IMG/VR virus record: IMGVR_UViG_3300032050_000036
Location: 49,499-113,498 of that record
Length of the DNA: 64,000 nucleotides
Origin: a virus
Strand: one strand, 5' to 3'
Shown: positions 17,647 to 34,770 of the stretch, one piece after another
Numbering within the stretch: position 1 is the stretch's first letter
How the letters are laid out: the number at the start of each line of letters is the position of its first letter
Translations under genes and position numbers: made by a program
Notes under the pieces: model-generated
The model's input: only the letters and a program-made list of their open reading frames with translations
What the model was told of the DNA's origin: nothing
Database searches by the model: none

Positions 17647-17754
17647 TTATCCCCAAGATCTCATTACAGAAATTAATACAAGAAGATAGGCCACCCATCC
17701 TGTGATAAATCCGTATATGAATATTGCTGGTTTGCTAATTAAAAGTTTCTTCAT
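17647..17754 (-). CDS. Small membrane peptide (35 aa)
   Basis: MKKLLISKPAIFIYGFITGWVAYLLVL; TATAAT 6 nt before ATG. Confidence 0.5.
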   Translation of the reverse strand: MKKLLISKPAIFIYGFITGWVAYLLVLISVMRSWG

Positions 17755-17774
17755 TTAACCATTATACATGGAAG

Positions 17775-17795
17775 TTATCCACAGGTTTATCCACA
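17775..17795 (+). promoter_or_regulatory. Tandem DnaA boxes
   Basis: TTATCCACA at 17775 and 17787. Confidence 0.7.
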
Positions 17796-17833
17796 GAAAT
17801 ATCTTACTGATTATATTATTGGATAGGGTTAAA

Positions 17834-17859
17834 GTGGAGTAAAGTGGAGGATAGTGGAG
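17834..17859 (+). promoter_or_regulatory. MraZ-type binding repeat
   Basis: GTGGAG x3 with 4-nt spacers. Confidence 0.55.
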
Positions 17860-18132
17860 CATGGAGCGCTTTTTAAGGCGGGGATCGTAATGTCAAACCA
17901 TAAACCCTATATCCCAAACCATATATCCTTCAAACCCTTATACCATATATGCCCCATATCTGTCAAACCATGTATAAAAGGTTTGGCATTATACATTCAA
18001 AACCATGGTTTGTCAAGTATCTTCGTAAAGGAATTTGAATGAAAAATTGCCAAAAGTCTGGGAAAATTCTGATAATTTCGTAATATGTTTTATTATGCCA
18101 AAAAATGTTTTAAAACCAGGAAATATGGTTTG

Positions 18133-18327
18133 TTATTGGTTATTAGGGGGATTGGAGTTGGTATCTTTTTCTATACCGTCCTTAAGAACGGGCGGTACAA
18201 AAGAAAAGTAATTAGACAAACCAATCTTATGGGTAATAGAAACAAATGTATTCCAAACCTGGTCTTGTCCTTTATTGTATGCTACTGGATCTGATTTTCT
18301 AAGGTTTGAAAAGTGTCTTGGACTCAT
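18133..18327 (-). CDS. Hypothetical protein
   Basis: TGTTACAAT 6 nt before ATG. Confidence 0.55.
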   Translation of the reverse strand: MSPRHFSNLRKSDPVAYNKGQDQVWNTFVSITHKIGLSNYFSFVPPVLKDGIEKDTNSNPPNNQ

Positions 18328-18621
18328 ATATTAATTGTAACACTCTTTATACCGCCCAAACTTTCAGCGATTTTTTGGACGGCGTTCGTAATGTCTTTTT
18401 ATCCTGTGTTTTGCGCTGGGCGCCCCAAATTTGGCGGGGGATAAAAAGATACCGTAATACTACCTATATAAGTATACATAGATACAATGGTTTGACAAAC
18501 AAAATATATTATGCTACATGGTTTGGGAAAAATATGGTTTGATCGTAATCTGGGAAAAATGGTTTGGTATCGTAATGGTTTGTTAACAAAGAAAAATGCA
18601 CCGACCCGTTTTCAGGGCTTT

Positions 18622-18897
18622 TTACGAATTGTCAAATCCTAAAAGCAATTCATCAAGACTAGAGTATCCTGTATCTTTGACACCAAGTGACTCTAAAAAT
18701 AAGTCCCATGTTTCATTTACATATCGTGTAGCCATTTCAGAAGCAGGAATAATTTCTTGTGAAATAGAAAACGCTAATGGCAAACCAATGTCGTTGTATT
18801 CGATAAAATCTTCAAACTCAGACTCACCTTTATAATTTAACCACAAGTCTGCCAAAATATTACATCTGCTAGAAAAGTCTGTATTGGTGTTGCTCAT
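18622..18897 (-). CDS. Hypothetical protein
   Basis: GAGGAG RBS; YNDIGLPLAF. Confidence 0.7.
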   Translation of the reverse strand: MSNTNTDFSSRCNILADLWLNYKGESEFEDFIEYNDIGLPLAFSISQEIIPASEMATRYVNETWDLFLESLGVKDTGYSSLDELLLGFDNS

Positions 18898-19081
18898 TGT
18901 ATTTCTCCTCTTTGTGGTATTGTGCGCTTTCTGCGATAGTGATAAGTCTGTTGTAGGAAACTGTTGGTGCGATTACTGCTAAATACTCGCCTACCTGCTC
19001 AATGTCAAGGCGAAGGTCAGATACGATAGCGGAAATACGCATGGCAACTTTCTCCTCGTCAGTTAGTCTGTGTTTTCTCAT
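18869..19081 (-). CDS. Hypothetical protein
   Basis: AAGGAG RBS before MRKHRL. Confidence 0.7.
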   Translation of the reverse strand: MRKHRLTDEEKVAMRISAIVSDLRLDIEQVGEYLAVIAPTVSYNRLITIAESAQYHKEEKYNEQHQYRLF

Positions 19082-19179
19082 AGTTCTCCTTATAGTCATT
19101 GTATCAAATAAGATGTGGGGGCGCAAGTAGAAGAAAGGTGCTACCTACGCCCCCTTATTACGGAGGGGACCCAACCCTC

Positions 19180-19536
19180 CTAGGATGTGACCGTCGTCAC
19201 AAGACTGTGATAGTTAATAAAATCTTGTATAGTATGTATACCAGTGTCATCAGTTACAGTCTTATTAATTAAATCAATTAGCACGGGATGGTCCATGAAT
19301 CCCAGGTCGTTAGGATTGCAGGCATAAATTCCATACCCCGTCTCGTCCATAATATTATCCTTGATTAGATAACTAACAGCCATACGTACATAGTATGACT
19401 CATCACCTAGGCGTGGTGCTGCATGCTGCAGGGCTGCTGCCAGGTCTGTATACATAGAGTATTCACCCCAATGGCTGTATAAGGCCACTGCCTGGTCTTC
19501 TGACTGCTTAAAAACGAATGTACAACGTGCTCCCAT
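19180..19536 (-). CDS. Hypothetical early protein
   Basis: GAAAGGA RBS; TTGACA-17-TACACT promoter at 19569-19597; LYSHWG. Confidence 0.75.
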   Translation of the reverse strand: MGARCTFVFKQSEDQAVALYSHWGEYSMYTDLAAALQHAAPRLGDESYYVRMAVSYLIKDNIMDETGYGIYACNPNDLGFMDHPVLIDLINKTVTDDTGIHTIQDFINYHSLVTTVTS

Positions 19537-19735
19537 GGTGGGTCCTTTCGATAGTTGGGTTTTCTTCTAGTGTATCAAATTTTAGGTCTAATGTCAATTG
19601 CTCGTACATCATGCCTCCTCAAAAGCAACTACAGATAGATCTGAAAGTACTTCGCTCCAGATCTCTCCCTCTCCAGCCTCTGATTCAACCACAAATTTCA
19701 TATAGGTCCCAGAAGGCTCGTGTATTACTTCAATA

Positions 19736-20032
19736 TTATACTGTGGCATTGTCTTCCCTTTCTGCTATAGCAAATGATAATTGATAAGTTAATTGATAAA
19801 CTGCAGCAAGAGCGTCACATTGTCCCTCCCAGTACTTACGTTCCATAGATTCTAAAGCGTCGCTATAGTCATTGGCTTCCTCTATACGCTGCGCTTCTTC
19901 TAGTTCTAGTTGAGCCTCATACATCCAGTTCTTCATCTCACCATGAATGATATCCAAGGCTGAAATATTTTCATCTACCATATGCTGCAGGTGCTCATCT
20001 AGATTGTAATCTGGATTAAAGTTTGTTTGCAT
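19736..20032 (-). CDS. Hypothetical protein
   Basis: GGAG RBS before MQTNF. Confidence 0.65.
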   Translation of the reverse strand: MQTNFNPDYNLDEHLQHMVDENISALDIIHGEMKNWMYEAQLELEEAQRIEEANDYSDALESMERKYWEGQCDALAAVYQLTYQLSFAIAEREDNATV

Positions 20033-20222
20033 GCTCTTCTCCAATCTGTATAAAATGGCGGGTAGCAATAGCCTGCCCACCCAACCAGTTAAATTCAAAA
20101 TCTAACTCTAGGAACTCTTTAGAATTCATATCTAAATCTTCCATTTGTTTTTCTATCTCTTCTTTGTCTTGCTCAATAGAAATGAGATGTGCTTTCATGT
20201 ATTCAATTAGGTAATTAGACAT
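20016..20222 (-). CDS. Hypothetical protein
   Basis: Coupled ORF. Confidence 0.65.
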   Translation of the reverse strand: MSNYLIEYMKAHLISIEQDKEEIEKQMEDLDMNSKEFLELDFEFNWLGGQAIATRHFIQIGEEHANKL

Positions 20223-20955
20223 CGACTTGGTCCATTCTATAGTTGGGTATATATTCCTCAGTTAAGTATACTTTATGGATGTCGCAATCTGCAACTGCTT
20301 CTAAGTCTGCCTCGCCTAGATAGTGACAAGAATCACAGATTTCTCCACAATCGTTATCACAGTATTCTAATGTATTAATTTCATCACAATCTCTACATTT
20401 GTTTTCATAGTTAGAATCTTGAATGATAACTCCAGCAAGATATTCTGTCTCACCACCCCAACCTGTTTCTTCCTCATAAGACAAGGTAATGTTTAGGTTT
20501 GGATAATCAAAAGATAGTCTTTGTATAGCAGGATGTGGCGGAGACCAAGCGGTATTAAACTTATACTGTAAAGAGGTTTCGTCTTCTTCGTATAACTCAG
20601 TCTCAGGATAATCTTCTCCGTCACGAACTGATACATCCCACTTAGTTCCCCACTCACGAACATTAAAGTCATACCAGCATTTACCCTTAAACTGTAATTG
20701 CTCTGCCATGGGCAGGGTATGGTCAGGTTGCTTCATATAATCTTCATCACTAATACCTGCTTGTATATGATTATAGATATTATGGAAAGCAAATATAGGG
20801 TTAGAGTATGAAGTCTCAGTTAACTCCATTTGTCTTGTTTCCATATTAAACTGGTCATGCATTTTAGTAAATGGTTGGTTAAGTTGTGCCTTAACCTTAG
20901 CAATGTCTTGTTCATTGCCTTCGATAGTTAGATAGTTGTAACACCAATTTGGCAT
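20215..20955 (-). CDS. DUF1281/Api92-like ferredoxin-domain protein
   Basis: MPNWCYN, WGTKWD, FNTAWSPP; TTGACA-17-TAGAAT promoter. Confidence 0.8.
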   Translation of the reverse strand: MPNWCYNYLTIEGNEQDIAKVKAQLNQPFTKMHDQFNMETRQMELTETSYSNPIFAFHNIYNHIQAGISDEDYMKQPDHTLPMAEQLQFKGKCWYDFNVREWGTKWDVSVRDGEDYPETELYEEDETSLQYKFNTAWSPPHPAIQRLSFDYPNLNITLSYEEETGWGGETEYLAGVIIQDSNYENKCRDCDEINTLEYCDNDCGEICDSCHYLGEADLEAVADCDIHKVYLTEEYIPNYRMDQVDV

Positions 20956-21170
20956 TATGGGTCCTTTCTGTGGGTTCTTGTATTATTCTAGCAAATTAGG
21001 TAGGGTATGTCAAACACGTCCCTCTGCCAATAGTCCTAGTAAGAAGTCCTCTAGATCTCTAAGTACTGATACATCTTCCTCTGCAAACTTAGTATCCTTA
21101 ATATGGTGATGGATAGAATAATTTAATATCATAGCCATATTTTCTACCTGCTCTGTTGTATATCCTAGCA

Positions 21171-21401
21171 TTATGCATTCTCCTTTTCCATAAGAATATT
21201 ATAGGCGGCAAGGCTGGTTATGTCAATATTTATTTCTCTACCAGGGTATTTATTAATTAGGAAATTAACTGCATCTCCTGCTGATTTAAAGTCACTATAG
21301 TTTTCTGAATATCCATATCCTTGTATAGTTATTTCCCAGCAATCAATCCCACCAGGTGAGACAGAGTATTCCATTTCATATATTTGTGCATTTAGGGTCA
21401 T
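21171..21401 (-). CDS. Hypothetical protein
   Basis: TTGATT-17-TATGAT promoter immediately upstream. Confidence 0.65.
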   Translation of the reverse strand: MTLNAQIYEMEYSVSPGGIDCWEITIQGYGYSENYSDFKSAGDAVNFLINKYPGREINIDITSLAAYNILMEKENA

Positions 21402-21545
21402 GGTTTAATCATATCAAAATCTAGGGGAAAAATCAAGTTCTACGTAATAAAAAAAATTCATGACATTTTTAGTCGGTTACGTAATAAAAGTTTTTGATGA
21501 TATTTTTAGTCGGCCACTTTTTTGATCTTTTGTCAAATAAAAAAT

Positions 21546-21573
21546 TGAGCAGTTTATACTCATGCTCAGGAGT
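21546..21573 (-). ncRNA. H-type pseudoknot motif copy 2
   Basis: ACTC-CTGAGCAT-GAGT-ATAAAC-TGCTCA. Confidence 0.7.
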
Positions 21574-21582
21574 TGAATTAGA

Positions 21583-22590
21583 TTAAACTAATTCTAAAGT
21601 GTTGCGAACAACATTTAGCAAACGATTTTTTTCTGCTGTGATAGCAGGGTCAAAACCACTTGAACCCATTAGGATTGATTCAGTAAGACCACGCTTACCA
21701 CCACGATACCAATCGATTCTTTCTGTGAGTGCGTTCCAAGCACCCCAAGCAGTATTGGCAATCATGCCATTGAATTCGCCTGTGTAAATATCATTGATTA
21801 AATCAACTTTATTTGTCCACTTAGAAAGTGCGCCTTTCTTAGTTTCATCAGGCTTAGGATACGCAGCCAAAACAATATCATTGAATTGTTGCGCTGTGAT
21901 TTCTTTTTCAATCATGAGTTGCGCCATGATAGAAAATTCGTCCATGTAAGCATTAGCAACAGCAAGAGCCTCACGAGCCTGTTGAACTTTACCCTCAGCA
22001 GATTGTGTGTGACGAATCTTGAATGATTGCTTTACGCCATTGTTTTTCTTAGTGCGACCAAGAGCAACAGCGAGAGTGTTAGCGCATACAACACGAACAG
22101 GTGTCACGCTTGCTTGAATAGCAACAGAACCATCGTGTGATGTATTAACAAGAAGATAAGTCTTAACCTTATCCGCTACACCATTAGGGTCAAGAACAGT
22201 CTCACGCTCAAGAGCAAGAGAACCGAAAACAACACGACCACTACGCAATGAGCCAGCAGTCTCCCAACGACCTCCGCCATCAAGAATTGCATCACCAAAA
22301 GTGAATAGTTCTTCATTTTGTAGTGGGACATAGCGTTCACCAACAACGCCTAAGACATCAACTTGATTTGCGGTGAATGGATTATCACGCACAACATATT
22401 GATAAGATTTATCAGATGTAAGAGTAGATGGGATTTCTACATCTTCAAGACGAACATTCCAACCATCAAGGTTAGCGAGTTCCAACATTTTTTCAGTAGT
22501 GACTTCCTCCTGAAAAACAGTTCCTAAACCATGCCAAGCAGGTTCACGGAATGAAGCGAAAGAATTAGCAGATTCTAATTCATGAGCCAT
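21583..22590 (-). CDS. DUF932 (TIGR03299-like) phage/plasmid protein
   Basis: MAHE..PAWHGLG, ETAGSL, NTSHDGS, PVRVVCANTL; GAAAGGA RBS. Confidence 0.88.
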   Translation of the reverse strand: MAHELESANSFASFREPAWHGLGTVFQEEVTTEKMLELANLDGWNVRLEDVEIPSTLTSDKSYQYVVRDNPFTANQVDVLGVVGERYVPLQNEELFTFGDAILDGGGRWETAGSLRSGRVVFGSLALERETVLDPNGVADKVKTYLLVNTSHDGSVAIQASVTPVRVVCANTLAVALGRTKKNNGVKQSFKIRHTQSAEGKVQQAREALAVANAYMDEFSIMAQLMIEKEITAQQFNDIVLAAYPKPDETKKGALSKWTNKVDLINDIYTGEFNGMIANTAWGAWNALTERIDWYRGGKRGLTESILMGSSGFDPAITAEKNRLLNVVRNTLELV

Positions 22591-22621
22591 ATTTATTTCC
22601 TTTCTATTTTTAGTTATTCTT

Positions 22622-22643
22622 ATCTTAGCACAACGGGCTGACA
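22622..22643 (-). promoter_or_regulatory. PafBC/RecA-NDp-type promoter
   Basis: TGTCAG-cccgttgtgc-TAAGAT. Confidence 0.65.
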
Positions 22644-22733
22644 AAAGCAAATCCTGGAATTTGGGCGTTTTGATCGTAACTACGTAAAACGGACATTTTA
22701 GGACAAAACGGGCCGACCACTTTTTTGAGGAAG

Positions 22734-22763
22734 TGAGCAGTTTACGTGGACGTGCTCAGGTCC
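22734..22763 (-). ncRNA. H-type pseudoknot motif copy 3
   Basis: GGAC-CTGAGCAC-GTCC-ACGTAAAC-TGCTCA. Confidence 0.7.
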
Positions 22764-22843
22764 CTCACGGTCTCTTTGAAAGAAAGGATGAAAGAAGAGA
22801 TCCGTGCACATTGCGTGGCCTTTCATGAACCACGCAAATTTAT

Positions 22844-23254
22844 TTAGATGTCGATGTTGTCGACGCTTGCAGAAACATGTGTTACATGATTCATATCATA
22901 TGTGATTGCTTCAAAATCAATATCATTAATTATTGATTCTGCGTCTTCACCTGCAGGAACTTCAATTGTTAAATAGTAAGTTACGGTAACCTCTGCTTCA
23001 ACTTCCTTGGTAAGTTCGAATGCACCAATCTCAGAAAGTTCAACAGCCTGCTCTTCAGTGATGTTGCCATTCTCTAGATTCTCCATGGTCCATTCATGTA
23101 GACCAGTTGACATTGCATTTAGTGCAGCAGCAGTGCTAAAGTCACGCTGTACAACACGAGCATGAGACTCTTCTACAGTCTTTACTCGCTCCTCTAGTTG
23201 CTTGATTGTATTACGAAGATATTCCTCCGTAGCATTAATTACATTAGTTTCCAT
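22844..23254 (-). CDS. Hypothetical early protein
   Basis: GAAAGGA RBS. Confidence 0.7.
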   Translation of the reverse strand: METNVINATEEYLRNTIKQLEERVKTVEESHARVVQRDFSTAAALNAMSTGLHEWTMENLENGNITEEQAVELSEIGAFELTKEVEAEVTVTYYLTIEVPAGEDAESIINDIDFEAITYDMNHVTHVSASVDNIDI

Positions 23255-23516
23255 CTGTGATATCCTTTCCTAGACTATCAAATTCGTTTATTTCATTAAT
23301 CATAGCATCCATTTCACTTTCTGTCAATAAAACATTAGTGACCAATGTTGCTGTAAGAGATGAGAGTAGCGCAGAATATTTAAATAACATCTGTGCGAAA
23401 TCATTATCTGACATTTCATTTCTTGCGTGTAGTAGTTGTGAAGCAATAGCCATTGACATATCGTCATGGACTGCGTCTTTAGTTGCTTCTTGTATTGCTA
23501 TAGCGGTTGCTATCAT
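23244..23516 (-). CDS. Hypothetical early protein
   Basis: GAAAGGA RBS before MIATA. Confidence 0.7.
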   Translation of the reverse strand: MIATAIAIQEATKDAVHDDMSMAIASQLLHARNEMSDNDFAQMLFKYSALLSSLTATLVTNVLLTESEMDAMINEINEFDSLGKDITDGN

Positions 23517-23542
23517 CTTAGTTTCCTTTCTTTCTAATACTA

Positions 23543-23564
23543 AGTTTAGCATTGGGTTCTGACA
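23543..23564 (-). promoter_or_regulatory. PafBC/RecA-NDp-type promoter
   Basis: TGTCAG-aacccaatgc-TAAACT; TTGACA also upstream. Confidence 0.65.
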
Positions 23565-23581
23565 TTTGTCAAGTTGGAGGT

Positions 23582-23609
23582 GGGGCAGTTTTACATCATA
23601 CCCAGGATG
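23582..23609 (-). ncRNA. H-type pseudoknot motif copy 4
   Basis: CATC-CTGGGTAT-GATG-TAAAAC-TGCCC; compensatory change in stem 2. Confidence 0.7.
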
Positions 23610-23735
23610 ATCCCTCTAGGAATACCCGCAAGGACTTTCGTCACTTCATTTGTTAGCGGGGCTTATCAAGAGAGAAACCTGTTGTGGCGGGGGTAATTAC
23701 GATTACACACCCGAAACCCGCCACAATTATTTAGA

Positions 23736-24158
23736 TTACAAGTATCTTGCGATAGCGTTGTAAGTAGAAGTAGAAACTACTTCCTCATCTGTCATCTTGA
23801 GAATACGAATTGCGTTCTCAATTTCATCTTTTTGCTCACGATACTGCCACTCATGAATAGACACATAGTCTTTCTTGGGTTCATCAGGTAGCGTGATAGT
23901 TCCAGCAGGTAGAGAGAAAGATACTTGGATTTCGTTATTGTATCTCTTATGAGCAGATAAGTCCTCTGCCTTAGCAATTTTATCAAGTGCTAATTTAGCG
24001 ACTTCCTTGTTCCAAGCCTTTACTGCCTTGTCGTGCTTTGCTTCGTTCGCCTCTTGTGAAGCGAAGTCTTTATTTAGTTTATCAAGTGCGCTTTCTAGTG
24101 CCTTGATAACCTTAGTTGTAGCGATTTTTACATTTATCGCTTTGCCATTTCTAGCCAT
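23736..24158 (-). CDS. Hypothetical early protein
   Basis: GAAAGGA RBS; TTGATT-17-TAGACT promoter. Confidence 0.75.
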   Translation of the reverse strand: MARNGKAINVKIATTKVIKALESALDKLNKDFASQEANEAKHDKAVKAWNKEVAKLALDKIAKAEDLSAHKRYNNEIQVSFSLPAGTITLPDEPKKDYVSIHEWQYREQKDEIENAIRILKMTDEEVVSTSTYNAIARYL

Positions 24159-24221
24159 TTATTTATCCTTTCTTAGTGGGTTGTTATTTATAGTCTAGCA
24201 TTTTTACTGCTAGAAATCAAG

Positions 24222-24251
24222 TGAGCAGTTTTAGTAGCCATGCTCAGGGCT
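24222..24251 (-). ncRNA. H-type pseudoknot motif copy 5
   Basis: AGCC-CTGAGCAT-GGCT-ACTAAAAC-TGCTCA. Confidence 0.7.
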
Positions 24252-24267
24252 TTTCCTGTATTAGGAA

Positions 24268-24435
24268 TTACTTTGCTGTCCAAGTTGTCCAGCGAGGTGA
24301 GCCATTGACATCAAGTTTTACACGAACGCTTGTTCCGTCTTGATTTGGCTTGATTTCGGTAATAACGCCTGTCACCTTTGACTTCTGTGAGGTGTAGGTG
24401 TCGCCTACCTTGTAAGTTGCTGTTGCTACTGCCAT
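24268..24435 (-). CDS. Small SH3-like early protein (paralog A1)
   Basis: AAGGAG RBS; TYKVGD..SKVTG.I; TTGACA-17-CATAAT promoter. Confidence 0.7.
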   Translation of the reverse strand: MAVATATYKVGDTYTSQKSKVTGVITEIKPNQDGTSVRVKLDVNGSPRWTTWTAK

Positions 24436-24534
24436 TTCTTTCTCCTTTGTTAGTTGGTTGTTATTACTTGTATTATTATGACATTTTTGAGAGATAATGT
24501 CAAGCCGAAACCTGACATTTCTCACATTTTGAGA

Positions 24535-24702
24535 TTAGTGTGTTTTTACCATAGCAAATCTAGTTTGATTATTTGCCAAGCGAAGCATGACCTTAGTTAC
24601 ATTTTGACGCATTGGAACGAACTTCTCAATACGACCTGTAACACCTGTCTTGCTGGTAGTAAATAAATCTCCTACCTGATAAGTGTATCCGCCTAGTGTC
24701 AT
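24535..24702 (-). CDS. Small SH3-like early protein (paralog A2)
   Basis: GAAAGGA RBS; TYQVGD..TGVTG.I. Confidence 0.7.
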   Translation of the reverse strand: MTLGGYTYQVGDLFTTSKTGVTGRIEKFVPMRQNVTKVMLRLANNQTRFAMVKTH

Positions 24703-24924
24703 TTGCGTTTTTCCTTTCTGTTTGGGTCTTAGTATTAGTTTAGCATAAAAATACAAGAAATACAATTCGGGGAGCGTTTTGGGGGTCTTTTTAATGTGAT
24801 CTTAATTACAGGGTCGTAACTTGACAAATTGGGTTTTGCGGGCCGACCACTTTTGCGGGGGATTTATTGAGAAATAAAAAAGTAAAGTATTAACCATGCT
24901 ATGAATAAATACTCTACACGCATT

Positions 24925-25644
24925 TTATTTTTTACTCGCACTAAATACAATATCTGCTTTATTGTGAACACACAATCCACATGTCACACAAGCAGAGCCA
25001 TTAGTAGAAATAAGCGGTATACGTTTTGCATTTTCAGGACACTTAGCGCCAGGTTTCGAAATTAATTCTTTCATAGTTTCTTGACCTACCGCAAAATTTT
25101 GTGCAAGGTATGCCATACGTACACCGTGTTGTTGTTTTAACTCTACGGCTGTTTTGATATTCTCACTATCTGCAGAGAAATATAAACTAAGGTTATCAAT
25201 ATTCTTTAGCATTTCTGCAGCAATCTTTACACGGGTGTATACCCAAAATTGTACGTCAGGATTATTTAAGATTACGTGTTTCCATGCGAATGCGTATTCC
25301 TTACTAAAGAAATCGCCATCCCAGTGAATGCGAAATAACTTAGGAGCCTCTCGCTTATCACAATCTTTCTTGAAATCATTAATCATATCTTGCAGCAGAT
25401 TTTCCATAGTATCATGGTCTGCGTCTTTTAATAAATTCCAGTTATGGAGTAGAGTTTCTCTTACTCCCTTATAGACTTTTTCAAGTTTTCCTGCGTAGCA
25501 TACCTTAGAGCATACAGAGGTCTCACCAGGACAGGAGTAAGCCTTGCCACTAGGCAATCCAAAAGTGTTGGCAATTGTTGGGGTCTTTCCGTTTCTTGAG
25601 ACAGCATTGGCCACCTTCCTATCATTAGAGCGTTTTAATTTCAT
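24925..25644 (-). CDS. Gene product 88 (GP88)-like Cys-rich protein
   Basis: SCPG...CSKVCYA, FRIHWDGDF, FWVYTR, C..CGLC. Confidence 0.8.
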   Translation of the reverse strand: MKLKRSNDRKVANAVSRNGKTPTIANTFGLPSGKAYSCPGETSVCSKVCYAGKLEKVYKGVRETLLHNWNLLKDADHDTMENLLQDMINDFKKDCDKREAPKLFRIHWDGDFFSKEYAFAWKHVILNNPDVQFWVYTRVKIAAEMLKNIDNLSLYFSADSENIKTAVELKQQHGVRMAYLAQNFAVGQETMKELISKPGAKCPENAKRIPLISTNGSACVTCGLCVHNKADIVFSASKK

Positions 25645-25889
25645 TGCTCATCCCTTTCTTTCATTGATAATTCTATCATTTTTTTATTGCTTTGTCTAGT
25701 ATAAACACGCTTGCTATTTACGGCAGAGGCTGCGTTAGATCTACGCAATTCTTGAATGCGCCTTAATTCTTCTTTACTCTTCCTAAACATAATTTAATAA
25801 TATCATAAACAAACAAAAATCACAAATTTAGGGAGGTTCTACTTAATCTACGTAAAACGGACATTTGGTGCAAATTGGTCGGGCGGTTT

Positions 25890-26117
25890 TTACTCTACAA
25901 AAACATACCATTCAATTTTTGTATCATCAAGAACAAAGTATTCTTCTTCATCATCAAAGTCATCTGCTAAAACTAAATTAAATCCTTCTTTAGTTTCGCT
26001 AATTTCTTTTACAGTTAAATACTGATCTTCAATTTTAATTAGATCACCTTCCGCCAATTGGTTTGGCAGAAGATAATCAGCAAAGACAAGTTCCATACTC
26101 ATCATTGTAGCAGACAT
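25890..26117 (-). CDS. Hypothetical protein
   Basis: Coupled ORF. Confidence 0.6.
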   Translation of the reverse strand: MSATMMSMELVFADYLLPNQLAEGDLIKIEDQYLTVKEISETKEGFNLVLADDFDDEEEYFVLDDTKIEWYVFVE

Positions 26118-26327
26118 TTAGCGAATGCTCACCTCTCCACTACGATAAAAAGTTTTTGTATACATTTTTCCTGTTGGGTCTGATAAGTTATAAGTTGCGT
26201 ATTCTTTAGCATCACCAAAGTCTACGCATTTAGTCCAAGCATCTACCGCTTCAAGCATATCTGATACTCGCAGGGTATTTACCAATTCTCCGTCATACAA
26301 AGTAGTAACTGAGTAAGTGTATTCCAT
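26118..26327 (-). CDS. Hypothetical protein
   Basis: GAGGA RBS before MEYTY. Confidence 0.65.
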   Translation of the reverse strand: MEYTYSVTTLYDGELVNTLRVSDMLEAVDAWTKCVDFGDAKEYATYNLSDPTGKMYTKTFYRSGEVSIR

Positions 26328-26328
26328 T

Positions 26329-26628
26329 TTAGTATTCCTCTCTTTCAATAATCCACGCATCTAGGTGGTGTGCTTCAATAATAGCATGAGCAGGGGCTAA
26401 ATCGCTACCCTTCCAAGATATGCCTTCAGGAAGTTTTATGGGTAAATCCCAAAGTCCAGCATCATTTACCGCATCTATAGCCTCAATACAAGGTCTAATC
26501 ATAGTTTTAGGAACGGGCGGGTAGTGATTAGCAGATAAGTGTATTCCTATCTGAGTTTCAATATCTAAGTGTATTCCCATATCCTCTAATACACCACTAG
26601 CCATTTCGTTAGCCATATTACTTCCCAT
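26329..26628 (-). CDS. Hypothetical protein
   Basis: HL..NHYPPVP, HHLD.W. Confidence 0.7.
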   Translation of the reverse strand: MGSNMANEMASGVLEDMGIHLDIETQIGIHLSANHYPPVPKTMIRPCIEAIDAVNDAGLWDLPIKLPEGISWKGSDLAPAHAIIEAHHLDAWIIEREEY

Positions 26629-26840
26629 TATCGTGCTTCTCCGCTCATTAGTAGTTCAGGCTCACTTATCAAGCCATTATCAAAAATAACATCTCCGTCA
26701 TCATCTAGGATTAGTCCATAAGGATTACAAATACAATCCTCAAAATCGTAGTCCTCGCCATTACCAAAGTAATCAACGCCTCTACCATTACAAAAATCGC
26801 AGTTTCTAATCTGCCTTAGTGCGTATTCCAATTTATCCAT
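26628..26840 (-). CDS. Small Cys protein (paralog C1)
   Basis: CDFCNGRG...CIC; GAAAGGA RBS. Confidence 0.7.
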   Translation of the reverse strand: MDKLEYALRQIRNCDFCNGRGVDYFGNGEDYDFEDCICNPYGLILDDDGDVIFDNGLISEPELLMSGEAR

Positions 26841-26868
26841 TTTTTATTTCCTTTCTTTCAATACTGAA

Positions 26869-26890
26869 ATCCTATCAGATAGGGCTGACA
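26869..26890 (-). promoter_or_regulatory. PafBC/RecA-NDp-type promoter
   Basis: TGTCAG-ccctatctga-TAGGAT. Confidence 0.65.
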
Positions 26891-26932
26891 AAATCAAATC
26901 TGACACGCCCTGTCCGATATGTCCGTTTTGTC

Positions 26933-27430
26933 CTACCATGAGGACTGATAATAGAATGATAGATTTTCAAAGTCAGGTCTATCAATAAGAGGCTGTAATT
27001 GATTAATGGTATCCATTAGGTCTTTCCAATACCATTCGTCAATATCAGTACCGCCAAAGAAAAATCCTTCTCTAGGTGGCAGGATATTAGGGTCTTTATT
27101 GGTAATCGCTAGAGTACAGTCATTTACCAATTGTTTTAGGTGCTTATGCGCTACATAGTACTCACCGCAGTCATCTTCGCCACGCTGTACAGTATTAACA
27201 AACCAATTGTGTATCTGATTACACTTGCGCCAATAGGCTACATTTACAGATACATCTACGCCATAGATACTTTCTTCATCTACAAGCGTATCAACACCAG
27301 CAGCATTTACTACATCATTCCATTGTGGAATGGTAGCCTCTGAATATTTAGTATCGCTATCTCGATCTAATTTACTCCAGTCAATTTTATTAATGTGCTT
27401 ACGAGCACTTAAATACATATCTAATCCCAT
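26933..27430 (-). CDS. Conserved phage hypothetical protein
   Basis: MGLDMYL..YWRK.NQIH.WF..GFFFG..YQSSW. Confidence 0.8.
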   Translation of the reverse strand: MGLDMYLSARKHINKIDWSKLDRDSDTKYSEATIPQWNDVVNAAGVDTLVDEESIYGVDVSVNVAYWRKCNQIHNWFVNTVQRGEDDCGEYYVAHKHLKQLVNDCTLAITNKDPNILPPREGFFFGGTDIDEWYWKDLMDTINQLQPLIDRPDFENLSFYYQSSW

Positions 27431-27448
27431 TTTATTTATTTTCCTTTC

Positions 27449-27649
27449 TTATAGGTCTGATACTTTTACAGCAATAGTAGCCCATTTAGAGCCATTGAAA
27501 CGAATTGAATAGGCTTGATAATCTGTACCTACCCATACATCATCACGCTTTTCAGCAAAGTTTATTTCTCCACCCTGATATTTACGGGCAAAAGAAGTAG
27601 GTCTATAATACTGGCCTACAAGTAAATCTTCAATTGAATAACTTCTCAT
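27449..27649 (-). CDS. Small early protein (paralog B1)
   Basis: YSIEDLLVGQYYR; GAAAGGA RBS. Confidence 0.7.
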   Translation of the reverse strand: MRSYSIEDLLVGQYYRPTSFARKYQGGEINFAEKRDDVWVGTDYQAYSIRFNGSKWATIAVKVSDL

Positions 27650-27768
27650 TGAATTTCCTTTCTTTATTTTCAGGCTTCTAGCCTATCATTTTTATCTTAT
27701 AAAATCAAATCGACACGCCGTAATTTAAGAAAAAATTCGGGTGTGTTTTTAATCACATCTTAACAGCC

Positions 27769-27789
27769 TGTGGATAACTCTGTGGATAA
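27769..27789 (-). promoter_or_regulatory. Tandem DnaA boxes
   Basis: TGTGGATAA at 27769 and 27781. Confidence 0.7.
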
Positions 27790-27792
27790 GTG

Positions 27793-27814
27793 GCCGACGC
27801 TGTCGGGCGTGTCG
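27793..27814. repeat. 22-bp dispersed repeat (second copy 29653-29674)
   Basis: GCCGACGCTGTCGGGCGTGTCG identical at both sites. Confidence 0.9.
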
Positions 27815-27992
27815 GAATTAGTTGAAAGTTGAACTATTGTTTAGCAGCGCAAGCAAAACATTTTAGATCTGCGACAAAAATTCTACCGCAGACCTCGCAT
27901 GTTTTAAATTTAGTTTTCTTTTGTCGCAAGTTTTATCGTGTAATAAATAGAAGCGATAAGAAAAATTTGAACAAGTGTAGTTAGAAATCTAG

Positions 27993-28184
27993 TCATGCGA
28001 TAATTCCTAACTCATCAACACCGCAAGCCTTTTCAAATCTTGCTTTATCGAATAATTCATTTTTGGTTCCAAAATAAGTTGAGAAACCTTCCACCAAATC
28101 CTCATAGACCTGCGGATGAATTTCATCTTTTACATCCGCAAGAATTGAAGCGATAGCCTTGAAGTGTGTTTTAGTTAGCGACAT
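27993..28184 (-). CDS. Small conserved phage protein
   Basis: T..HF..IA.....N..FD..RF..AC. Confidence 0.7.
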   Translation of the reverse strand: MSLTKTHFKAIASILADVKDEIHPQVYEDLVEGFSTYFGTKNELFDKARFEKACGVDELGIIA

Positions 28185-28187
28185 TTT

Positions 28188-28439
28188 TTATTCCTGTTCT
28201 GCTAGTAGAATATAAGAATGAGTTGCGCCTTCATTTATTCTTTCAAGTTCAGCAAGCAATTCATCACGAGTAAAGAGTGAAGCGTCTCCAATTAAATCTC
28301 TAACTGCTTCAATATTCATCTGAGTAAATACTGGAGCAGGCACATTTTTAAGCATGCCTACGAATGGCGAATGGTCAGCGATACGAGAAACGAAATTTAC
28401 TCCGTTTGCGGTAAATGGGTAGTCTGTATAGTTTTTCAT
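28188..28439 (-). CDS. Hypothetical early protein
   Basis: AAAGGA RBS; TTGACA-17-TACAAT promoter. Confidence 0.7.
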   Translation of the reverse strand: MKNYTDYPFTANGVNFVSRIADHSPFVGMLKNVPAPVFTQMNIEAVRDLIGDASLFTRDELLAELERINEGATHSYILLAEQE

Positions 28440-28552
28440 TTATTTATTTTCCTTTTCTTTCGTTTTTACTATTGTAGCGATTTTCTCTAAGTTTGTCAAT
28501 TGTTGCGCTTTGCGCTGGCTCTCAACAAGAGCCTTGAATTCATCTAATTTCA

Positions 28553-28753
28553 TTAGTCATTATTCCTAACTGCTACTGTGCGGTAGGTATAACGACCAAC
28601 CTCACTACGAACACGAACAAGATACGCTTCAGCGTTTTCATACCATACGCAAGCAGGGTGTTTTTCTGCTTCTACAATTTCTCCAACAAGAGAATTGGAA
28701 CGATAAGTTTTGCCTACTAATAGGCTTGGGATTGAGTATAAATTAGCACTCAT
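28553..28753 (-). CDS. Small early protein (paralog B2)
   Basis: YSIPSLLVGKTYR. Confidence 0.7.
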   Translation of the reverse strand: MSANLYSIPSLLVGKTYRSNSLVGEIVEAEKHPACVWYENAEAYLVRVRSEVGRYTYRTVAVRNND

Positions 28754-28785
28754 TTTTTTACCTTCTTTCATTTTCTTACCCTGTA

Positions 28786-28807
28786 AGTTTAGCATTTTTA
28801 TCTGACA
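28786..28807 (-). promoter_or_regulatory. PafBC/RecA-NDp-type promoter
   Basis: TGTCAG-N10-TAAACT. Confidence 0.65.
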
Positions 28808-29096
28808 AAATCAAATCCAAAATGCGGATAAATCGGACATTTTTTAAATTATTTTTGTGGGAAAAATCACATCCCACGTAACACGACACGCCCGAGTACG
28901 GGGGTCGGCGAGTTTTATCAGCATGTCAAGATCAACATACCGCTTTTTATTTTTATTTATCAAACTCAAACTTTATTTTTACATTGTCTACCATGAATGG
29001 CAAAGTGTTATCAAGCAACGCCTGAATATTTTCAGTTAGATAGTCGTTATCTGTTTGATAAGTTATTGTGATTTTATAGTCCATTATTTATTTTCC

Positions 29097-29306
29097 TTAG
29101 TCTAAGAAAACTGCGCCTTTAGCAGTTTTATGATTAGCACATACATTACCACGAGGAATCTCTACATGGCAAACAAAGCAAAGCATTTTTACTTTTGCTT
29201 TATTTATGATTGCCCATTCAAGGTCAATCTTAGTTTCAACACTAGCATTTTCTAGCGATACCCAACCAGCACCGCTTTTATTCATTTCAAATATTTCAAT
29301 AGACAT
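29097..29306 (-). CDS. Small zinc-finger protein
   Basis: CFVC...CANH. Confidence 0.6.
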   Translation of the reverse strand: MSIEIFEMNKSGAGWVSLENASVETKIDLEWAIINKAKVKMLCFVCHVEIPRGNVCANHKTAKGAVFLD

Positions 29307-29308
29307 TA

Positions 29309-29503
29309 TTACAACACCCAACTTTCATTTGTATAAGATAACCACTCTCCGAGTGTCATCAAACCTTTATACTCATTACACTTTCCGCAGAAAGTATTTC
29401 CTGCGTAGTCATCACAAAAAACGCAAACGATTTGATTTGCTTCCTCATCGGAAACATTTGCGAGAGTAATCTCTCGGATTTCATATTTATTTATTGTAGT
29501 CAT
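29309..29503 (-). CDS. Small zinc-finger protein
   Basis: CVFC...CGKC; GAAAGG RBS. Confidence 0.7.
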   Translation of the reverse strand: MTTINKYEIREITLANVSDEEANQIVCVFCDDYAGNTFCGKCNEYKGLMTLGEWLSYTNESWVL

Positions 29504-29538
29504 TTTAGACCACCTTTCTTTTTTTATCTAATACGAGT

Positions 29539-29560
29539 ATTCTAGCAGGGGGGTCTGACA
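29539..29560 (-). promoter_or_regulatory. PafBC/RecA-NDp-type promoter
   Basis: TGTCAG-acccccctgc-TAGAAT. Confidence 0.7.
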
Positions 29561-29593
29561 TTTTTGGGGGTATAAAACGGACATTTTGGACTT

Positions 29594-29625
29594 TGTGAGG
29601 CACATCACATGTGACGTAAGCCACA
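29594..29625. promoter_or_regulatory. Two adjacent CRP/GlxR-type sites
   Basis: TGTGA-ggcaca-TCACA then TGTGA-cgtaag-CCACA. Confidence 0.65.
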
Positions 29626-29786
29626 CGTAAAAAGGTACAAAACGGACATTTAGCCGACGCTGTCGGGCGTGTCGCAGCGAGGTAGAAAATGTGTCCTAAT
29701 TCACACACGACACGCCGTGTTAGGACTTGACTTTTTGAGATTTATGTGATAGGATACTATTGTATTTTTAGAAAGGATATGTAGTT

Positions 29787-29954
29787 ATGTTATCAGATAA
29801 AACAATAGAAAAAATCGTTTATGAGTATCAGCATGGAGGCGTTCAGGCATATCACCCTGAAATCTCACTATCTGAGAGAAAGGCTCTCCTCAAGTACCTA
29901 TGGAGCCTACCATCTAAGTGTGCTCCAGAGTGTGAGGTAACTCACAAAAATTGA
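29787..29954 (+). CDS. Small early protein (55 aa, not in track)
   Basis: GAAAGGA RBS; TTGACT-17-TAGGAT promoter. Confidence 0.65.
   Translation: MLSDKTIEKIVYEYQHGGVQAYHPEISLSERKALLKYLWSLPSKCAPECEVTHKN
29931..29946. promoter_or_regulatory. CRP/GlxR-type site
   Basis: TGTGA-ggtaac-TCACA. Confidence 0.65.
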
Positions 29955-29984
29955 TGGACGACACGCCCGAAAAACAGGGCAAAA

Positions 29985-30006
29985 TGTCAGTGGTAGGGTA
30001 TAGCAT
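29985..30006 (+). promoter_or_regulatory. PafBC/RecA-NDp-type promoter
   Basis: TGTCAGTG-gtagggta-TAGCAT. Confidence 0.75.
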
Positions 30007-30042
30007 ACAGGTATTAGATAGAAAAAAAGAAAGGAAGTCAAA

Positions 30043-30195
30043 ATGACTAACACATACGAAAAACTTCACCCAATCTGCTCTACATGCGGACATGTCAATT
30101 CTTTTGAAAGTTGGGAAATGATTTGCCCAACAGATAAGACATACAAGACACGAGAGGTCTTGACCTTCACAGAGTCAGGCTACTATGTGAAGTAA
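30043..30195 (+). CDS. Small Cys protein (50 aa, not in track)
   Basis: GAAAGGA RBS; CSTCG. Confidence 0.65.
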   Translation: MTNTYEKLHPICSTCGHVNSFESWEMICPTDKTYKTREVLTFTESGYYVK

Positions 30196-30201
30196 ATCAC
30201 A
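30186..30201. promoter_or_regulatory. CRP/GlxR-type site
   Basis: TGTGA-agtaaa-TCACA. Confidence 0.65.
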
Positions 30202-30229
30202 CAAAAGGGGTAGCCACAGACCCCCAAAA

Positions 30230-30251
30230 TGTCAGTGGCAGGGGATAGAAT
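30230..30251 (+). promoter_or_regulatory. PafBC/RecA-NDp-type promoter
   Basis: TGTCAGTG-gcagggga-TAGAAT. Confidence 0.75.
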
Positions 30252-30279
30252 AAGATTACTAAATAGAAAGGATAACTAA

Positions 30280-30456
30280 ATGAAAACACTTAGTTACACA
30301 GCAGAAAAAGATAACACTCTTGTTTCTGTATCAAATCGCCTTATGGTTAGCGAGTATCAAATAAATAACCTACTAGATAGCCTAGTAGCAAATGGCTACA
30401 CTATCCTCACCACAGAGGTGAATGACGGAGATTACTCCCCACATTGGCAAGGCTAA
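30280..30456 (+). CDS. Small early protein (58 aa, not in track)
   Basis: GAAAGGA RBS. Confidence 0.65.
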   Translation: MKTLSYTAEKDNTLVSVSNRLMVSEYQINNLLDSLVANGYTILTTEVNDGDYSPHWQG

Positions 30457-30460
30457 CCCT

Positions 30461-30482
30461 TGTCAGTGCTACCTGATACACT
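30461..30482 (+). promoter_or_regulatory. PafBC/RecA-NDp-type promoter
   Basis: (T)TGTCAGTG-ctacctga-TACACT. Confidence 0.75.
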
Positions 30483-30506
30483 TACATTATTAGAAAGGAT
30501 AAATAA

Positions 30507-30623
30507 ATGATAAACACACTAACTAGAATAAACTGCGATGAGTGCCACGGGCACGGAGTTATCTTTTGGGGTAACGATGAGGATTATGATGTAGAACCTT
30601 GCGAGTGTGTGGCTAATGGCTAA
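30507..30623 (+). CDS. Small Cys protein (paralog C2, 38 aa)
   Basis: GAAAGGA RBS; CDECHGHG..GNDEDYD..CEC. Confidence 0.65.
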   Translation: MINTLTRINCDECHGHGVIFWGNDEDYDVEPCECVANG

Positions 30624-30730
30624 CTACTCAGCAGAACAACTACGCAGAAAGGCTCACCTTGCTAGAGGTGGAACACTTGCCAACTATGACCGCTCACATT
30701 ATGATAAAATAACAATAGGAGAAAATAAAA

Positions 30731-30928
30731 ATGATACCAATCAGACTAACAACAACTAACGGAGAGAGTAAGACAATGAACCTTCCAAATAGAGAAACAG
30801 TAGAAACTTTTATTACTACTTTCTCTAGTTCATTACCATTAGGCTATGCTGTATGTATAGACGCACCTCTCATTGGAATACACAATGGGTGGTTATTTGG
30901 AAAAAAGGAGCCAGCAGTACAAAAGTAA
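30731..30928 (+). CDS. Hypothetical protein
   Basis: AGGAG RBS. Confidence 0.65.
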   Translation: MIPIRLTTTNGESKTMNLPNRETVETFITTFSSSLPLGYAVCIDAPLIGIHNGWLFGKKEPAVQK

Positions 30929-30941
30929 ATCCTCCCCCTAG

Positions 30942-30991
30942 TAGTGAGCACAGAAAATAGATCCTTCAAAGTTGTGCTCACTATTTTTTTT
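30942..30991 (+). terminator. Intrinsic terminator closing rightward early arm
   Basis: TAGTGAGCAC/GTGCTCACTA stem then T8. Confidence 0.75.
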
Positions 30992-31081
30992 GTTTTATTT
31001 TTATTATTTCTGTATCATACATATTAGCAAAAAATTCAGATTTTTGTCATTTTGGTTTTGGGTATGCTGTATAATAAATAC

Positions 31082-33499: not shown

Positions 33500-34267
33500 T
33501 CACCAATCCATTTTATCATAATACGTAACAGAGTATTCTCCACCAAACACTTCAGCATATGAGAAAATATCACACATATATTTCCTGGTTGTTGTCAAAC
33601 CAACTTTATCGGTTTGATATTTATATCCCCTATTCAATGTTTCATGTGAAACCTTCTCTTGAACGAAAGCCTCATTAAGGGTTTGTATATACCGATCTTT
33701 GCCATACCGCTTTGACGTAAAGGATTGGTTTGGATATTTGATTCGTATACCGTCGTCAATTTGTCTGGCATCTTCGGTTTCATAAATAACATATTCCACT
33801 GCAGGACAAACCATCCTATCAGACCATGTTCGCATGTTATCGCTGTAATTATCCATATTGCGTAGGGTTGAATCAGCGTATGCCATGCGTATCATCTCTG
33901 TCGCCGATGTTTTAATTCCTGTTGCGAACGCAATTAAATAAGCGGTTGCGAATGGAAATTTGTCGCTGTACTTAGTTATGCCGAAATGAATATTGGGGTT
34001 AAAACTTTTCGACGACATATTGTCATTTTGTAAACGCATATGATTGCCGATTGAAACATAATCTGGGTGATTCATATCGCAGTCAACAAACAAACAATCT
34101 CTGGGACTAATTCCATCCGAAAGACAAAGAATATTCTTGTCATACGTGCCAACAACTTTTGCTCCGTTATAACGATTTAATAACTGCGCCGAAACAAAAC
34201 CGTCCATATCTGGGGAAATTATTAAATTTGTAGAATACTCCAGTGTGCGTAGTATCTCAGTTTTCAT
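33500..34267 (-). CDS. DHH-like phosphoesterase (tentative)
   Basis: PDMDG, FVDCD, GNH in DHH-family order. Confidence 0.5.
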   Translation of the reverse strand: MKTEILRTLEYSTNLIISPDMDGFVSAQLLNRYNGAKVVGTYDKNILCLSDGISPRDCLFVDCDMNHPDYVSIGNHMRLQNDNMSSKSFNPNIHFGITKYSDKFPFATAYLIAFATGIKTSATEMIRMAYADSTLRNMDNYSDNMRTWSDRMVCPAVEYVIYETEDARQIDDGIRIKYPNQSFTSKRYGKDRYIQTLNEAFVQEKVSHETLNRGYKYQTDKVGLTTTRKYMCDIFSYAEVFGGEYSVTYYDKMDW

Positions 34268-34555: not shown

Positions 34556-34770
34556 TTAATATATATTATATATAAAGAGATTTTATCTCTGAGGGAAAGT
34601 CCCCCCCTCCCCCCATAGATTTTTTATTACATCTACTGGCGAGAAGTGAGTTTTATCTCTAGTGCAAAGTCCCCCACAAACCCTATAAACACTATACCAC
34701 AAACTTTTATCTACTACAAACATTGTAAAGCAATATGTCCGTTTTATACCTTTATGATATACTTTTAATT

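Follow-up and report, generated by a model that had tools for sequence, protein, structure and literature searches.

We analysed a 64-kb stretch of viral DNA (the window, which is the last 64 kb of the 113,498-bp IMG/VR virus contig IMGVR_UViG_3300032050_000036) and, within it, an array of small genes whose spacers carry several kinds of regulatory box. With a probability that we put at roughly 0.6, the sequence points to a control region of a freshwater actinobacterial phage that depends on the host RNA polymerase, its boxes being parts of working promoter modules read by host factors and not mainly decoys. Phage gene expression here is probably governed by regulators of the host's DNA-damage response and cell cycle; PafBC and WhiA are the best-supported readers of the boxes, DnaA is a plausible one and CRP an uncertain one.

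What is directly observed is that the motifs are present, how they are spaced, how far they are conserved and that they are identical with host and published sites. Counts in the window were set against expectations from dinucleotide-preserving shuffles. The PafBC-type element TGTCAG-N10-TAnnnT occurs 8 times against 0.85 expected, GACACGCC 8 times against 0.22, the CRP-type dyad TGTGA-N6-TCACA 4 times against 0.15, the DnaA-type box TTATCCACA 7 times against 1.0, and AAATGTCCGNTTT, the reverse complement of AAAACGGACA, 5 times against 0.02, with six exact copies of AAAACGGACA. Of the copies in the whole 113-kb genome, the 17-31 kb part of the window has 8 of the 9 PafBC-type sites, 7 of the 9 GACACGCC boxes, 4 of the 7 DnaA boxes, every CRP dyad and each of the 5 AATGTCCG cores that belong to the TGTCCG boxes; these five kinds of motif are nearly limited to about 14 kb. 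An earlier note on this DNA had placed PafBC-type, CRP-type and DnaA sites and two further motifs in the spacers, and had counted one PafBC-type site, three CRP-type sites, two GACACGCC boxes and two AAAACGGACA boxes in 29540-29760. All were present as located, far above shuffle expectation, and the inventory was exact, with GACACGCC at 29666 and 29709 and AAAACGGACA at 29574 and 29639. Its description of the region as a hub of host-regulator boxes stands insofar as the boxes are dense, conserved and match host consensus sites, and is weaker for the CRP label and for AAAACGGACA.

PafBC-type promoters at the divergent small genes

The small genes lie on the minus strand from 18.6 to 29.5 kb and on the plus strand from 29.8 to 31.6 kb. 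Their divergence at 29.5-29.8 kb, noted before, is borne out by the gene ends, as the minus-strand genes stop at 29503 and the plus-strand genes begin at 29787. Between them lies the control region, sequence blocks of which are kept in four relatives:

29504-29786: divergent control region separating the first gene of the leftward set (29309-29503) from the first of the rightward set (29787-29954), with one promoter of the PafBC type and one of the sigma-A type, two WhiA boxes, two TGTCCG boxes and three CRP-type dyads

All eight PafBC-type sites of the window are found within 22.6-30.5 kb, every one of them 25-40 nt upstream of a small gene that it would drive:

22622-22643, minus: PafBC-type promoter for the DUF932 gene (21583-22650)
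23543-23564, minus: PafBC-type promoter for a small gene starting near 23515
26869-26890, minus: PafBC-type promoter with a TTGATT -35 hexamer and an adjoining WhiA box, for 26628-26840
28786-28807, minus: PafBC-type promoter with a TTGATT -35 hexamer, for 28553-28753
29539-29560, minus: PafBC-type promoter TGTCAGaccccccTGcTAGAAT, for 29309-29503
29985-30006, plus: PafBC-type promoter TGTCAGTGGtagggtaTAGCAT, for 30043-30195; CRP dyad starting 54 nt and WhiA box 25 nt upstream
30230-30251, plus: PafBC-type promoter TGTCAGTGGcaggggaTAGAAT, for 30280-30456; CRP dyad starting 44 nt upstream
30461-30482, plus: PafBC-type promoter for 30507-30623

The chromatin immunoprecipitation (ChIP) consensus of Mycobacterium smegmatis PafBC is tGTCgg(N10)tA(N3)T, and the helix-turn-helix (HTH) domain of PafB contacts -23 to -28 (PMC8635444). 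With the -10 hexamer placed at -12 to -7, TGTCAG falls at -28 to -23, matching the PafB contact, and the PafBC label given previously fits the published consensus to the base. Moreover, PafBC is switched on by single-stranded DNA (ssDNA; PMC11804915), so that infection or phage replication could itself trigger the PafBC-type promoters.

Related phages were collected from IMG/VR with the DUF932 protein as query: 80 related loci were taken from 215 matching stretches, and 57 non-redundant loci (962 kb; DUF932 identity down to 70%) were kept after near-duplicates had been removed. All motifs recur in the same region of more than 50 relatives, which disposes of the possibility, raised in the earlier note, that they might not be conserved. 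In the 57 loci, TGTC[AG]G-N(n)-TAnnnT occurs 360 times at n=10 and 3-89 times at other n. The position matrix of these sites shows an extended -10 (TG) in most cases and, downstream of it, a leader rich in A, a ribosome-binding site and then the start codon. An unbiased check anchored on the -10 and a downstream start only returned TGTCAG as the top hexamer at -28 to -23 (175 of 599, with 10 for the runner-up). A hexamer with at least a 4/6 match to TTGACA is absent from 74% of 352 sites; among sites with an extended -10, a -35-like hexamer is found in about half.

In the relatives, at least one upstream box accompanies 55% of the 352 unique PafBC-type promoters, and the boxes are 8 to 20 times as frequent there as at random positions of that region:

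Perfect CRP dyad upstream: 30% of PafBC-type promoters, 1.7% of random positions
WhiA box upstream: 21% of PafBC-type promoters, 2.6% of random positions
TGTCCG box upstream: 18% of PafBC-type promoters, 0.9% of random positions
DnaA box upstream: 17% of PafBC-type promoters, 1.2% of random positions

The motif set is absent from Streptomyces phage NootNoot (terminal repeat region) and from mycobacteriophages L5 and TM4, and thus is not a general actinophage trait. LexA control of the region was ruled out, since the TCGAAC-N4-GTTCGA box is absent from the window.

Boxes upstream of the promoters

The previously unassigned motif GACACGCC is, judged by its letters, the WhiA/WhiB2 consensus site: it is the exact 8-bp consensus obtained for M. 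tuberculosis WhiA by ChIP sequencing (ChIP-seq) and in vitro DNA affinity purification sequencing (IDAP-seq) and for WhiB2 by ChIP-seq (PMC13473873, 2026), and both proteins bind the M. tuberculosis recA promoter (PMC13473873). WhiA reads GACAC on either strand at a variable distance upstream of the -35, and WhiB bridges WhiA to sigma-A (PMC10243135). The phage WhiA boxes likewise lie just upstream of the -35 position, in both orientations. Seven of the eight in the window fall within 26.9-30.0 kb:

26902 (plus), 27712 (plus), 27806 (minus), 28885 (plus), 29666 (minus), 29709 (plus) and 29960 (plus): seven GACACGCC boxes, spanning 26902-29967

In the relatives, WhiA boxes on the strand of TGTCAG are most frequent 25 nt upstream of it, and those on the opposite strand 18-19 nt upstream. 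When 9-mers of the phage family were ranked de novo by enrichment, CGACACGCC came first (188 occurrences against 0.8 expected, in 47 of 58 sequences), followed by the TGTCCG box and GTTATCCACAGG. A gene of the phage itself may bear on these boxes:

1798-2130, plus: WhiB-like (Wbl) gene of the phage; the product contains four Cys and the motif GVWGG

Four Cys together with GVWGG are typical of Wbl proteins, and the product could act together with host WhiA at the GACACGCC boxes. The whiB gene has been used as a marker for actinobacterial phages (PMC10914622; PMC10202952). At both 27790-27805 and 29653-29665, a small hairpin with the sequence CCGACAGCGTCGG or the complement of it lies immediately next to a WhiA box, and the hairpin is kept in relatives.

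Perfect CRP-type dyads stand at 19186, 29594, 29931 and 30186, to which imperfect copies are added:

20322, 24795, 27742, 28856, 29610 and 29690: CRP-type dyads with one mismatch; all dyads together span 19186-30201

The three within 29540-29760 are thus the perfect one at 29594 and those at 29610 and 29690, with one mismatch each. In the relatives, 222 dyads have the N6 spacing, no other single spacing has more than 4, and a central TA is preferred. The dyads most often start 44, 54 or 65 nt upstream of TGTCAG; in the window, the promoter at 29985 has its dyad at the 54-nt position and the one at 30230 at the 44-nt position. With transcription start sites inferred, the dyad centres would fall near -64.5, -74.5 and -85.5, one helical turn apart, which fits an activator on one face of the DNA.

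By sequence, TTATCCACA corresponds to the canonical DnaA box, and four of its copies form two pairs with 12-bp spacing, 17775/17787 and 27769/27781:

27769-27789, minus: TTATCCACA pair, 12 bp apart, with inverted WhiA boxes on either side, upstream of the promoter of 27449-27649
17775-17795, plus: TTATCCACA pair, 12 bp apart, where the small-gene region begins on its left side

The oriC of the candidate host lineage introduced below (chromosome start and end) likewise has TTATCCACA pairs 10-12 bp apart, and these identical boxes bear out the earlier DnaA label. It is possible, though in our estimate unlikely, that the pairs, perhaps with nearby boxes, constitute a phage replication origin and have no part in transcription control. 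Such an origin would account for boxes paired as in the host oriC, for the position of the pair at 17775-17795 in a gene-poor stretch with iteron-like TCGTAATG repeats, and for the retention of both pairs in relatives. However, the pair at 27769-27789 lies inside a promoter-upstream module, between two WhiA boxes, and the 17% of PafBC-type promoters with an upstream DnaA box in the relatives contrasts with 1.2% of random positions; moreover, an origin role and a transcription role are not mutually exclusive. The gene-poor stretch itself, 17700-18600, is a candidate replication origin: besides the DnaA-box pair it contains iteron-like repeats ending TCGTAATG at 17865 and 18366 and at 18057, 18522 and 18549, and both the pair and the TCGTAATG repeats recur in relatives.

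The last kind of box has the consensus aaATGTCCG(A/T)TTTgtcc and shares AAATGTC-G with the promoter element:

22686, 25854, 28830, 29574 and 29639, minus: TGTCCG boxes (AAATGTCCGNTTT), spanning 22686-29651
26911-26933, plus: triple TGTCC repeat

These boxes were ruled out as promoters, having no -10 element at any spacing. Promoters of a different type occur beside the PafBC-type ones:

29727-29755, plus: sigma-A-type promoter TTGACT-N17-TAGGAT, serving 29787-29954 and closely preceded by a WhiA box
20215-20955, minus: gene with a DUF1281_C (Api92-like ferredoxin-like) domain, downstream of a consensus TTGACA-N17-TAGAAT promoter

Since consensus sigma-A promoters are found in the same leftward arm, the status of the region as the first-expressed DNA, assumed in the earlier note, is not established.

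Candidate host lineage, proposed mechanism and rival explanations

A search of a genome collection with the phage ribonucleotide reductase found only phage contigs mis-binned into metagenome-assembled genomes (MAGs) from Lake Mendota and elsewhere, which indicates a freshwater setting and carries no host evidence beyond that. The contigs with reductase relatives lie in MAGs labelled Chitinophagaceae, Flavobacterium, Gammaproteobacteria, Bifidobacterium, Luteolibacter, Paceibacteria and others; close relatives in MAGs of so many phyla are likely phage contamination of the bins. One such contig, in an actinobacterial MAG, led to the candidate host order, whose genomes of 1.2-2.2 Mb (mostly 1.2-1.7 Mb) fit the freshwater acI (Nanopelagicales) group.

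We found that TGTC[AG]G-N10-TAnnnT lies upstream of recA in 27 of 30 candidate-order genomes. In the 23 genomes with TGTCAG at recA, a LexA box directly follows (typical copy TGTCAGtggcgccTGcTACCTT), and a CGACAC(G/A)C box stands 14-18 nt upstream of TGTCAG at recA of the candidate hosts. Sharing both the WhiA box and the PafBC element, the phage promoters reproduce the host recA layout minus the LexA operator. Of the 38 TGTCAG-N10-TAnnnT matches found genome-wide in the five genomes that head the list, 22 continue with TG, like the three rightward phage promoters. The presumed readers are encoded as well: adjoining WYL genes, which we read from sequence as a pafBC-like pair, in 12 of 13 candidate-order genomes, WhiA in 13 of 13, and a Crp-family gene. 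GACACGCC shows no overall enrichment in the candidate host genomes, though it is present at the recA promoters. In four of these genomes (G008, G013, G015 and G017), TGTCAGTG-type PafBC matches cluster at about 0.39-0.50 Mb, with 5-9 sites in 10-60 kb, which suggests a PafBC-controlled genomic island in streamlined actinobacteria.

In the mechanism that we propose, the core promoter would be TGTCAG at -28 to -23 followed by TGnTAnnnT, a form that PafBC, turned on by ssDNA, would make readable to sigma-A RNA polymerase ('sigma adaptation'). Further upstream, host WhiA would read the GACACGCC boxes jointly with a Wbl protein, which may be the WhiB of the phage; CRP-family dyads of 16 bp, whose positions differ by about 10 bp, would act as for class I activators; and DnaA-box pairs would serve as a further input. 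The succession of WhiA box and PafBC element is that of the host recA promoter, without its LexA operator. We infer that host proteins bind the boxes and that phage expression is coupled to DNA damage or ssDNA, to cell-cycle state and possibly to cyclic AMP (cAMP). A fuller and more tentative version, to which we give somewhat less than an even chance, is that the phage family copied the recA P1 promoter, that PafBC, triggered by incoming or replicating phage DNA, licenses expression, that the phage WhiB recruits WhiA, and that the CRP-type and DnaA boxes add energy- and replication-state inputs.

Between the two functions offered in the earlier note, sensor or decoy array, the fixed geometry argues for working promoter modules: the constant N10, the Shine-Dalgarno sequence and start codon that follow, and the dyad phasing of about 10 bp fit promoters better than a pure decoy.

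Several points weigh against this reading. All of its support is sequence-based. The host link is weak because it rests on a binning artefact; the phage has about 35% G+C, whereas the candidate-host recA loci have 45-52%. Compared with the host recA promoters, those of the phage have the WhiA box 8-12 nt further upstream. A -35-like hexamer is found in a quarter to a half of the TGTCAG promoters, unlike published PafBC promoters, and such promoters may fire without PafBC. The TGTCCG box, or AAAACGGACA, has no assignable binder. CRP is the weakest regulator assignment: the perfect dyad is found in none of five candidate host genomes of 1.2-1.4 Mb, and one-mismatch dyads in candidate host genomes number 63 against 71 for a control pattern, which is no enrichment. 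Thus, the CRP label given earlier stays a resemblance, as the dyad has the 16-bp CRP-family form and occurs far above chance, but a host CRP regulon using it is not evident.

That phage-encoded factors read the boxes, for instance a MotA/AsiA-like activator on TGTCAG near -26, which would make a class of middle-gene promoters, and small phage dimers on the 16-bp dyads, we consider doubtful. The region and the genome are rich in small proteins of no recognisable family, the consensus sigma-A promoters in the same arm could express phage factors first, perfect dyads are absent from the candidate host genomes, and the PafBC study itself draws a parallel to phage-produced transcription factors that take over host transcription (PMC8635444). 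On the other hand, three of the motifs are identical base for base to host consensus sites and are also found at the host recA promoter and oriC. Furthermore, searches of 20 small region proteins and genome-wide family searches gave no HTH, WYL, Crp or sigma domain apart from one sub-threshold HTH match outside the window. A decoy array that soaks up PafBC, WhiA, CRP and DnaA during phage replication, and so blunts the damage response, division and replication initiation, is improbable. In its favour, the sites are perfect consensus copies in a dense cluster, a span of 11 kb has four perfect CRP dyads where the five candidate host genomes have none, and TGTCCG boxes resemble the -26 element yet have no -10 element. 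Against it, the PafBC elements keep the exact N10 to a -10 followed by a ribosome-binding site and start codon, the dyads and the WhiA boxes are fixed and phased in their distance from promoters, and each kind of site numbers only about 8 per genome. We thus continue to prefer working promoter modules under the control of host factors.

Comparison with known systems and genome context

The closest counterparts of the predicted promoters are the mycobacterial PafBC-dependent (RecA-NDp) promoters, including recA P1. They share the bipartite motif and its spacing and the element at -28 to -23; the M. tuberculosis recA promoter is also bound by WhiA/WhiB2. Most phage copies lack a -35, but a quarter to a half have a -35-like hexamer. 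In contrast to them, the phage copies are on a lytic-type genome, before small genes of unknown function, have A at position 5 as in the freshwater host lineage, mostly have an extended -10 and have no LexA box. The WhiA/WhiB (WhiB2) promoters of Streptomyces and M. tuberculosis resemble the phage ones in the exact GACACGCC, on either strand upstream of the -35, and in the availability of a Wbl protein; here, by contrast, the sites are predicted, the partner may be the phage Wbl and the boxes are combined with the PafBC element.

MotA and AsiA of T4 are an example of phage-produced transcription factors. As in T4 middle promoters, where a MotA box at -30 with a -10 acts together with AsiA, an activator box would replace the -35 and the phage would time its own expression. 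The T4 activator and co-factor, however, are phage proteins, whereas the box here equals the site of a host activator and no WYL- or MotA-like phage protein was found. The likeness to class I CRP/GlxR promoters lies in the 16-bp TGTGA-N6-TCACA, the central TA preference and centres a helical turn apart; the differences are that start sites are inferred here and that the candidate hosts have no dyad enrichment. In layout, the leftward small-gene array with wide spacers and DUF932 homologues resembles the terminal-repeat region of Streptomyces BE-cluster phages such as NootNoot, some Streptomyces phages having GP88 homologues too. BE phages have DUF932 matches at two places per record, which we read as a long terminal repeat. 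The motif set, by contrast, is missing from NootNoot. As to the long terminal repeat that the earlier note thought possible for the present phage, the direct terminal repeat of the contig is 126 bp, which we read as circular-assembly overlap, and five complete relatives each have one copy of the divergent region; assemblies collapse such repeats, however, so that neither observation decides for or against one.

Phage use of host regulators is a known theme, and phage-encoded WhiB proteins are widespread and poorly understood. To our knowledge, PafBC sigma adaptation and WhiA/WhiB co-activation, both recent discoveries, are known only at chromosomal genes. In the library that we searched, we found no report linking PafBC or GACACGCC/WhiA boxes to phage promoters, and the box combination and the recA promoter copy appear to be new. 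If the proposal is true, a virus takes over an ssDNA-triggered alarm pathway of its host as its own switch, phage-encoded WhiB proteins gain a concrete job, several hundred natural variants of PafBC/WhiA promoters become available for dissecting the mechanisms, and uncultured phages can be assigned to actinobacterial hosts by a sequence-only route.

The phage, with a G+C content of about 35%, carries tail-fibre genes, six tRNAs and a ribonucleotide reductase. When about 30 proteins of the region were compared with Pfam and PHROGs, the only matches were to DUF932, GP88, DUF1281_C and an S-adenosylmethionine (AdoMet)-decarboxylase-like family, and none of these proteins, the 20 small ones included, gave a DNA-binding domain. 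Genome-wide family searches of the phage found no WYL, Crp-HTH or sigma region-2 gene. The sole hint of a phage DNA-binding protein is a 55-amino-acid open reading frame at genome positions 33765-33842 (about 15.7 kb before the window start), with a sub-threshold match to a sigma-70 region-4-like HTH (E 0.0017). Megablast of the region and tblastn of a 1233-amino-acid protein against a phage collection gave no match; DUF932 and GP88 homologues, in turn, are common in Streptomyces and Mycobacterium phages:

21583-22650, minus: DUF932 gene
24925-25644, minus: GP88-family gene (PF17338)

A hairpin-like GAGCAGTTT...TGCTCAGG element is repeated at 21547, 22735 and 24223 (plus strand); read on the minus strand it lies just 3' of genes, and it is among the most enriched 9-mers of the phage family. 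Finally, two 37-nt repeats (TTTTATCTCT...AAAGTCCCCC...) with long C-runs lie at 34581-34687, upstream of the structural gene block, and adjoin an inverted AAAACGGACA copy at 34736.

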